64,000 nucleotides of DNA from a virus (lineage: Duplodnaviria > Caudoviricetes), in IMG/VR virus record IMGVR_UViG_3300014208_000024, positions 64,001-128,000 of that record; one strand, written 5' to 3'. Each line of letters starts with the position of its first letter. Position 1 is the first letter of the stretch. The notes below the pieces were generated by a model, which saw only the letters and a list, made by a program, of their open reading frames with translations, was not told the DNA's origin and made no database searches. Both the position numbers and the translations under genes were made by a program. Positions 13,205-13,588 of the stretch are shown piece after piece.

Positions 13205-13588
13205 GTTTTTATAACTATTTTTATCTATTAAACCATTTAAATTATTTTCTTTTAGGGCACAAGGTAAATTCCTACACACCCTTTTTGATTCATCGGATGG
13301 TTCTAAAGCAATAGCCGTAACTTGATTGTCAATATCAGGCTCTCTAAAGATGGAAATAGTAATTCCCCTTGAGTGAGCTTTTTCAATCAAGAACAACATT
13401 TCTTTTTCGTCTTTTACAGACAAATACGCTAAATAATTGGAATTTTTGTGCCAGGAGTTGGCGATGTTATTGTGTTCTAAACAAAATTCAGCTAAAGCGT
13501 GGCCGCCTTGTACAGCTTGATAAGCAGTGGTCAAATCTCTTCTGACAACCACTATTAATTTTGCATTATTCTCAACAATCTATAACAT
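13175..13588 (-). CDS. PTH2-superfamily (peptidyl-tRNA hydrolase II-like) protein with in-frame TAG at codon 3
   Basis: KLIVVVRRDL..QAVQGGHA, FREPDIDNQVTAIA; ATG TTA TAG ATT GTT.. is in frame with track ORF 13175-13552. Confidence 0.75.

Follow-up and report, generated by a model that had tools for sequence, protein, structure and literature searches.

A conserved early stop codon in a phage PTH2-like gene co-varies with the anticodon of phage suppressor tRNAs

Why would a phage carry a stop codon as the third codon of an otherwise intact gene, and how could the protein still be made? The question is raised by a gene in the 64,000-nucleotide (nt) stretch that we analysed (hereafter, the window), which covers bases 64001-128000 of the 372,283-bp virus record IMGVR_UViG_3300014208_000024, a groundwater phage with 28.7% G+C and 46 tRNA genes. 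The gene encodes a protein with the PTH2 (peptidyl-tRNA hydrolase 2) fold, and an earlier note, made from the letters alone, had pointed to an in-frame TAG at its codon 3 (ATG TTA TAG), which we read directly on the minus strand. We call this codon the gate, since the gene is probably a stop-codon-gated unit whose product would be made only when the phage's suppressor tRNAs read it. The elements concerned, in window coordinates, are the following.

13175..13588, minus strand: PTH2-fold (peptidyl-tRNA-hydrolase-like) gene, 137 codons including the gate, plus TAA (Pfam, AlphaFold2, Foldseek)
13586..13588, minus strand: ATG start codon, the sole canonical start within the open frame
13580..13582, minus strand: in-frame TAG, codon 3 (the gate), with ATT next at 13579-13577 (read from the sequence)
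11335..11409, minus strand: near-canonical tRNA-CUA with the loop TTCTAGA, 1.8 kb downstream of the PTH2-like gene (ARAGORN; Rfam tRNA, 55.5 bits)
10251..10324, minus strand: second tRNA-CUA with the loop CCCTAAA (C33), 2.9 kb downstream (ARAGORN; Rfam tRNA, 50.2 bits)

From 13588 the minus strand reads ATG TTA TAG ATT GTT GAG AAT AAT GCA AAA TTA ATA GTG, with the GTG at 13552-13550, and the frame is then open to the TAA at 13175, so that the product of reading through the gate has 137 residues. Eight codons upstream of the ATG a TGA closes the frame, and no other ATG, GTG or TTG lies in between. A 434-nt contig from an independent groundwater metagenome run of a different study (X2) is identical over 13245-13678, TAG included, and the codon is therefore not an assembly error; this also removes the concern that it might be a read error.

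The first six homologues, from IMG/VR contigs and published huge-phage genomes and 32-51% identical, all start with ATG, one or two codons, TAG and ATT. A profile search of viral contigs added 80 loci (given below by L numbers), and clustering at 90% identity yielded 71 clusters. An early TAG with an in-frame ATG 1-8 codons ahead was found in 62 of the 71, and the clusters that conserve the gate share just 33-55% identity. Retention of this arrangement in 62 of 71 non-redundant homologues excludes chance, and the TAG is not unique to this genome. Ten matches were also found in bacterial genomes of a species collection, mostly on long phage-like contigs binned into metagenome-assembled genomes, and nine of the ten are gated.

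The position and context of the gate were counted in 60 gated clusters, with the mycobacteriophages Catera and Myrna set aside for their ambiguous start. TAG stands at codon 3 in 34 clusters and at codon 4 in 17; six clusters have it at codon 5, two at codon 2 and one at codon 9. The base on its 3' side is A in 49/60, G in 11/60 and a pyrimidine in 0/60 (chance probability 6e-14, given that purines occupy 60% of first codon positions elsewhere in these genes). Efficient amber suppression is classically favoured by a purine 3' of UAG. The codon after TAG is ATT in 36/60; the codon before it varies (AAG, ACG, CTA, ACT, TCG and others), and hence no particular tRNA is targeted.

The upstream ATG appears to be the true start. 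In many relatives a GGAG Shine-Dalgarno sequence lies 6-8 nt ahead of it, which marks it as the initiation site; since the ATG at 13588 is also the only canonical start in frame, its assignment as the start in the earlier note is upheld. The stop-free homologue L030 reads GTG ACT GCC ATC AAG GAA GGC at this position and the gated L070 reads ATG ACG TAG ATT AAA GAA GGT. L030 thus keeps the start and the flanks with an Ala codon at the amber site, and the amber position would therefore be translated.

The product is a member of the PTH2 fold family. Residues 10-101 match Pfam PTH2 (PF01981) with 39.1 bits against a cut-off of 23 (E=1e-9), and the protein also matches PHROG 1866, a family of unknown function. 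An AlphaFold2 model built from 60 homologues has a mean predicted local distance difference test (pLDDT) score of 88.9, and its 14 top-ranking Foldseek hits in the PDB are without exception structures of Pth2 (2zv3, 3erj, 1xty, 1wn2, 1rlk, 1q7s and 1rzw), with target-normalised template modelling (TM) scores mostly of 0.69-0.80. The model gives low confidence (66) to residues 1-10, which lie outside the fold, and forms strand beta-1 from residues 11-16; the amber codon is therefore in a floppy tail before the fold. According to the model, a start at GTG 13552 would remove the first residues of strand beta-1.

Matches at the equivalog level fail, with 30.1 bits against 82 for TIGR00283 and 27.3 bits against 126 for NF003314, and by these profiles the phage PTH2-like proteins are a subfamily separate from equivalog Pth2. 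Archaeal and eukaryotic Pth2 (2zv3, 3erj, 1xty, and 1q7s, Bit1) share with them the fold (TM 0.7-0.8), a Q..H motif and the overall length. The active site differs. Sulfolobus Pth2 has a conserved Lys in a GK motif and a catalytic Asp. In a profile alignment to 2zv3, the phage family has an invariant Tyr or a gap at the position of the GK lysine, in agreement with the earlier remark that the usual PTH2 Lys is absent, and the invariant Glu of Glu-Pro-Asp at the position of the catalytic Asp, where Glu-Pro-Asp and a four-residue deletion replace the catalytic Asp loop. With its altered active site, the phage enzyme is a putative hydrolase, whose role we infer. A review of jumbo phages lists PTH2 genes without mention of the stop (PMC7824862).

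The gate co-varies with the anticodon of a nearby suppressor tRNA. In 42 of the 62 gated clusters, versus one of the nine others, ARAGORN detected a tRNA-CUA within 1.5 kb, which invariably shares the strand of the gene and at some loci is just 20-65 nt from it; with wider flanks, two further gated loci (L041 and L017) proved to have CUA tRNAs. A change of gate is accompanied by a change of anticodon: among the nine other clusters, those of L084/L085 and L086 carry TGA in frame 7-11 codons after an ATG, with ATT or ATA as the next codon, and the contig of L085, the sole one of this lineage long enough to judge, encodes 25 tRNAs that include a tRNA-UCA, 2.3 kb from the gene, but no CUA. The truly stop-free lineages for which enough sequence was at hand are L030/L033, L074 and L080, and none of the 27, 28 and 24 tRNAs, respectively, that accompany them reads a stop codon. 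The co-variation of gate type and suppressor anticodon speaks for the proposal of the earlier note that the full protein needs amber read-through, plausibly by the phage's CUA tRNAs. The 47 tRNA-CUA genes are all different and built on varied scaffolds; with residues 1-10 also outside the modelled fold, this suggests that the residue inserted at the gate is free to vary.

Several observations weigh against a gate read by suppressor tRNAs. In the present genome, the tRNA-CUA at 10251..10324 has C33 and two acceptor-stem mismatches, and a search among the 46 tRNAs of the phage for the parent of the two CUA tRNAs gave no clear candidate (at most 72% identity). No suppressor occurs in the sequence fetched for about 18 of the 62 gated clusters; among individual loci, the gated L047 has no suppressor tRNA within ~4 kb, the gated L070 has a tRNA-UUA adjoining the gene, with none of its 33 examined tRNAs being CUA, and L117 has a tRNA-CUA and no gate. 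The comparison of gated and ungated clusters for tRNA-CUA gives a Fisher p=0.002 that ignores relatedness and is hence inflated, the tree of the 110-residue protein is poorly resolved and needs about six changes of gate state, and an independent-pairs test with its 1-4 pairs has no power. None of the RNA runs searched contains DNA of this phage. An active suppressor would also lengthen the phage's TAG-ended genes; the distance to the next stop has a median of 12 codons, so the cost of such extensions is small here. Finally, in the mycobacteriophages Catera (NC_008207) and Myrna (NC_011273), ATG or GTG is followed by TAG and then GTG, with GGAGG or GAAGG 7 nt before the latter GTG, which is the annotated start; the Shine-Dalgarno spacing fits this later GTG, and the TAG may lie outside the open reading frame (ORF) in these two phages.

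With these points weighed, we consider gating by suppressor tRNAs the probable explanation: given a real start, a conserved early stop and a co-varying suppressor, the enzyme would be made only when the suppressor beats the release factor. That the gate is actually read through, and why this enzyme is the one gated, we infer. Ribosomes would start at ATG 13588 and reach UAG at codon 3. Where release factor 1 (RF1) wins, only a dipeptide would result and no enzyme; where a phage tRNA-CUA wins, one amino acid would enter the disordered N-terminal tail and the whole PTH2-fold protein would be made. Across the family, failed read-through would cost merely a di- to tetrapeptide and no truncated protein. 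The enzyme would have to wait for the suppressor tRNA to be transcribed, processed and charged, and its amount would be proportional to suppressor activity. Because the gene and the tRNAs are on one strand in one tRNA-rich block, this has the anatomy of a coherent feed-forward (AND) gate.

As for why this gene is gated, our preferred reason is that a tRNA-ester hydrolase activity might be needed, or tolerated, only while stop-codon suppression runs. The enzyme might clear peptidyl-tRNAs and stalled read-through products, supplied in proportion to suppression, or alternatively it might act on the suppressor tRNA itself.

This last possibility leads to the strongest rival, which is that of a self-limiting suppressor, a negative feedback in which the enzyme would cleave, on the suppressor tRNA, the ester bond to the aminoacyl or peptidyl group. 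Stronger suppression would yield more enzyme, the enzyme would reduce suppression, and UAG read-through would settle at a low set point. It could explain why the gated gene is always this hydrolase-like enzyme, tied to a suppressor tRNA gene that at some loci is 20-65 nt away on the same strand. The Tyr in place of the GK lysine and the Glu-Pro-Asp in the Asp region suggest a changed substrate, and TAG stays a normal stop in the genome, where unchecked suppression would be unwelcome. The genome also has a second UAG-sensing device, an RF1-type release-factor gene with a +1 shift at CTT TAG C. Against self-limitation, ungated homologues occur in tRNA-rich phages free of suppressors (L074, L080 and L030), which imply a job outside suppression, and the great diversity of suppressor scaffolds makes specific recognition harder to imagine. 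We therefore regard self-limitation as possible though doubtful.

The RF1-type gene (G000:C1:39069-39830, minus strand) lies ~24 kb before the window start, is shortened, and carries a PPT motif and GGQ. Its full frame needs the +1 shift at CTT TAG C (genome 39597); zero-frame read-through of its TAG would end 11 codons on at a TGA. The arrangement is an amber version of the prfB switch. It would respond in the opposite way to the PTH2 gate, with its product made whenever anything slows the decoding of UAG. Release-factor genes were sought in ten genomes with the cassette and found in three, none of them frameshifted, and there is no general co-occurrence. Tentatively, and with low expectation, one may go further and picture the tRNA-CUA and the gated gene as a self-contained circuit, in which the hydrolase, through an action on the suppressor tRNA or on what suppression produces, would determine how much UAG read-through takes place in the infected cell; the cassette would be a portable core from which full TAG recoding repeatedly evolves, accompanied here by the RF1-type gene as a reciprocal UAG sensor.

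A second rival dispenses with read-through. ATG-TTA-TAG would be a two-codon mini-ORF, and the enzyme would come from re-initiation or direct initiation at ATT 13579 or GTG 13552, both of which the earlier note had considered as starts. The codon after the stop is ATT, ATA, ATC, GTA or GTT, all weak starts, in 52 of the 60 relatives, and the Shine-Dalgarno sequences of Catera and Myrna described above point the same way. In other lineages, however, the next codon cannot initiate (AAC, AAT, AAA, AGC, ACA, ACT, GGC or AGA), and a start at GTG 13552 truncates strand beta-1. Initiation past the TAG is also contradicted by the stop-free sister L030, which has Met-Thr upstream and Ala, a sense codon, at the stop position. 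Re-initiation, moreover, predicts neither the link with suppressor tRNAs nor the joint switch from TAG to TGA and from CUA to UCA. These points leave the rival improbable.

A third rival holds that the phage uses genetic code 15 throughout, with this TAG as one among many. The genome has two CUA tRNAs, and some relatives are clearly recoded (a second TAG in the domain of L002-L004, and eight TAGs in L065), but reading TAG as sense raises long-ORF coverage merely from 77.6% to 79.0% and hardly alters the ORF map. ORFs of 1109-1714 codons contain no TAG, and TAG terminates ~28-33 confident ORFs (~7%). We further compared ORF lists under TAG=Q and coding-potential windows on both sides of every TAG. 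Eight candidate internal TAGs emerged, of which seven are gene ends followed by a new gene and the eighth is the frameshift site of the RF1-type gene; six other candidates for N-terminally gated genes in the 372-kb genome all have their own later start. Of the two traits expected under code 15, a phage tRNA-CUA is present (two genes) and a large set of genes with in-frame TAG, in such phages typically late ones, is absent. Back-up stops after TAG-ended genes, looked for as a sign of suppression, are not enriched (p=0.25). The phage thus appears to keep the standard code, with read-through proposed for the PTH2-like gene alone and the RF1-type gene frameshifted at TAG, and genome-wide recoding is very improbable. 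That the gene is a pseudogene with a nonsense mutation or an assembly error, as a lone stop at codon 3 that looks like damage and an ORF missing or truncated in several public records might suggest, is effectively refuted by conservation, given the identical sequence in the independent run, a remaining frame that is intact and folds with high confidence, and the same feature in 62 of 71 clusters at only 33-55% identity.

The relatives that look TAG-recoded form a small group of their own. In addition to L002-L004 and L065, in which the TAGs lie in an open frame, L087 has an ordinary start and an internal TAG at the alignment column of the second TAG in L002 and L004, with a tRNA-CUA 0.9 kb upstream. 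This recurrent column (L002, L004 and L087) is just ahead of a conserved Trp of helix 2. By this pattern, the genomes of L002, L004, L087 and L065 look recoded.

Gating by a suppressor tRNA has parallels in several known systems. Borges et al. 2022 reportedly put forward the idea that recoding times lytic genes. In code-15 phages with suppressor tRNAs (crAss-like and Lak), TAG is read as Gln, with metaproteomic proof (PMC9523058). As in those phages, a phage tRNA-CUA is proposed here to read an in-frame TAG and expression is thought to wait for the tRNA, and some relatives of the PTH2-like gene sit in genomes recoded in the manner of code 15. Unlike them, the present phage keeps the standard code and has one gene with one TAG (the RF1-type frameshift gene aside), and the TAG keeps the same position (codons 2-5) within a single protein family of unrelated phages, with the tRNA physically linked. 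In prfB (release factor 2) as well, an early in-frame stop ties expression to how the stop is decoded. There, however, UGA is escaped by a +1 frameshift and the product reads the stop, whereas here a dedicated suppressor tRNA is proposed, and what the gene encodes has the Pth2 fold and is no release factor. The minigenes of lambda bar (AUG AUA UAA) are two- to four-codon ORFs that release peptidyl-tRNA, the substrate class of Pth, and their toxicity depends on one rare tRNA. The gate resembles them as a very short ORF that ends in a stop soon after the start (ATG TTA TAG here, and the stop at codon 2-5 in 59/60 relatives); the codon before the stop varies among relatives, unlike in lambda bar, which argues against sequestration of one tRNA. 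The earlier note's likening of the gate to such a minigene is thus apt in structure, but drop-off there, and the termination-fidelity sensor that the note pictured, would be conjectural.

Another parallel is synthetic. In E. coli, leaky expression is abolished by a suppressor-tRNA feed-forward "leak dampener" (Ho et al. 2020, PMC7969014), which likewise combines a co-regulated amber suppressor tRNA with a nonsense codon in the regulated gene to form a coherent feed-forward AND gate; it was engineered, whereas the phage device appears natural and conserved. Full-text literature searches returned no description of the gate. Translation that depends on suppressor tRNAs is already known in phages, and the gate is not a wholly new principle. 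New here are the anatomy of the gene in this genome, the TAG in independent reads, the purine statistic, the comparison of L030 with L070, the whole-contig tRNA inventories of stop-free lineages and the annotation errors in cultured phages.

Large phages with a standard code often carry suppressor tRNAs of unexplained ("orphan") purpose. For phiKp24 the authors wrote that the purpose of the suppressor tRNA needs investigation (PMC8386662), and those of XacN1 read through gene ends for targets of its CUA tRNAs and found none (PMC5852040). A conserved, position-fixed stop that co-varies with the anticodon would be a first natural target for such orphan suppressor tRNAs. Outside recoded genomes, it would also be one of the few natural examples in which nonsense suppression serves as a regulatory gate. 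Pairs of an orthogonal tRNA and its leader could also serve as ready-made parts for synthetic biology.

The proposal is directly testable, since cultured phages of Salmonella, Cronobacter, Yersinia, Acinetobacter, Tenacibaculum and Mycobacterium carry the device (Mycobacterium being ambiguous). Their records also expose a systematic annotation error, in which the ORF is missing or truncated (fHe-Yen9-04, GAP32, Arash and RsoM2USA) and tRNAs are mis-named. The leaders, tRNAs and annotations are as follows.

Yersinia phage fHe-Yen9-04 (LT960551): GAGG, 8 nt, ATG TCT CAC TAG ATT; tRNA-CUA 3 kb downstream; ORF unannotated
Cronobacter phage GAP32 (JN882285): ATG GCA CAA TAG AAT; annotated Sup-tRNA ~2.8 kb downstream; annotated start internal
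Salmonella phage Arash (OQ632216): ATG CTG TAG AAC; tRNA-CUA labelled tRNA-Phe; gene truncated
Acinetobacter phage ME3: ATG ACT TAG ATT; tRNA "anticodon CTA" ~0.4 kb upstream; annotated start after the TAG
Ralstonia phage RsoM2USA (MG752970): AAGGAG, ATG TTG TAG ATT; no suppressor found within 4 kb; unannotated
Tenacibaculum phage pT24: ATG AAA TAG ATA; CUA tRNA (ARAGORN), one of four matches to the Rfam tRNA family; fusion with an HD domain; annotated start internal

In Catera and Myrna, ARAGORN places a tRNA-CUA just downstream of the gene, which the records name tRNA-Arg (Catera) and tRNA-Ser (Myrna). Klebsiella phage RaK2 has an ordinary start and no gate, and none of the seven tRNAs within 4 kb of its gene is CUA. 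In Xanthomonas phage XacN1, the domain is the C-terminal half of ORF364, and ATG AAG TAG ACC is in frame four codons before the annotated start; as a gated case it is suggestive only, and this leader bears on the statement in the XacN1 paper that no target was found for its two CUA tRNAs (PMC5852040).

Several jumbo phages have an HD-domain-like protein that is either joined to the Pth2-like domain in one polypeptide, before or after it, or encoded next door (L091 973-1812, which is XacN1 ORF364; L123 2099-3052, pT24; L122 ~1900-2480, fHe-Yen9-04; and LR745206 339218-339727). The pairing hints at a shared role in tRNA 3'-end metabolism. In the present genome, a search for an HD-domain partner beside the gene gave just a weak match ~25 kb off (genome 52,000-52,190).

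Further features of the tRNA-rich block around the gene are listed below.

12998..13067, minus strand: tRNA-like gene, anticodon loop of 6 nt, 108 nt downstream of the PTH2-like gene (ARAGORN "anticodon tc"; Rfam tRNA, 50.4 bits)
13722..13750, minus strand: promoter-like hexamers TTGAAA, 17 nt, TATATT, upstream of the PTH2-like gene (weak, being no commoner than in shuffled sequence)
10195..10232, minus strand: terminator-like hairpin and T run directly after the distal tRNA-CUA (consensus scan only)

The terminator-like hairpin may mark where the same-strand block ends. Other tRNA-like genes whose anticodon loops have 6 or 8 nt lie beside homologues at L055/L057 (2098-2167) and L011 (2704-2777), and further odd-loop genes adjoin those at L030 (2672-2744) and L067 (2994-3067). 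In the stop-free sisters L030 and L067, the two odd tRNAs share 80% identity, each has an 8-nt loop that includes TTCA, and they are closest to the Gln-like CUA tRNAs of gated relatives (77%); they may be altered descendants of a suppressor. Elsewhere in the genome, a tRNA-UUA (33634-33706, minus strand) is of the ochre type and might, by wobble, read UAG too; this genome has TAA as its main stop codon.

At ~13104-13204 (minus strand), overlapping the 3' end of the PTH2-like ORF and the spacer beyond, there are two sequences that resemble a tRNA acceptor stem and T arm, one of which ends in ACCA. Neither ARAGORN nor Rfam calls them, and unrelated metagenome contigs match just their T-arm part. 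On the strand of the PTH2-like gene, a RidA/L-PSP family gene (12193-12636, minus strand) sits between it and the CUA tRNAs, and a GIY-YIG/NUMOD homing-endonuclease gene (14739-15512, minus strand) lies upstream of the PTH2-like gene.

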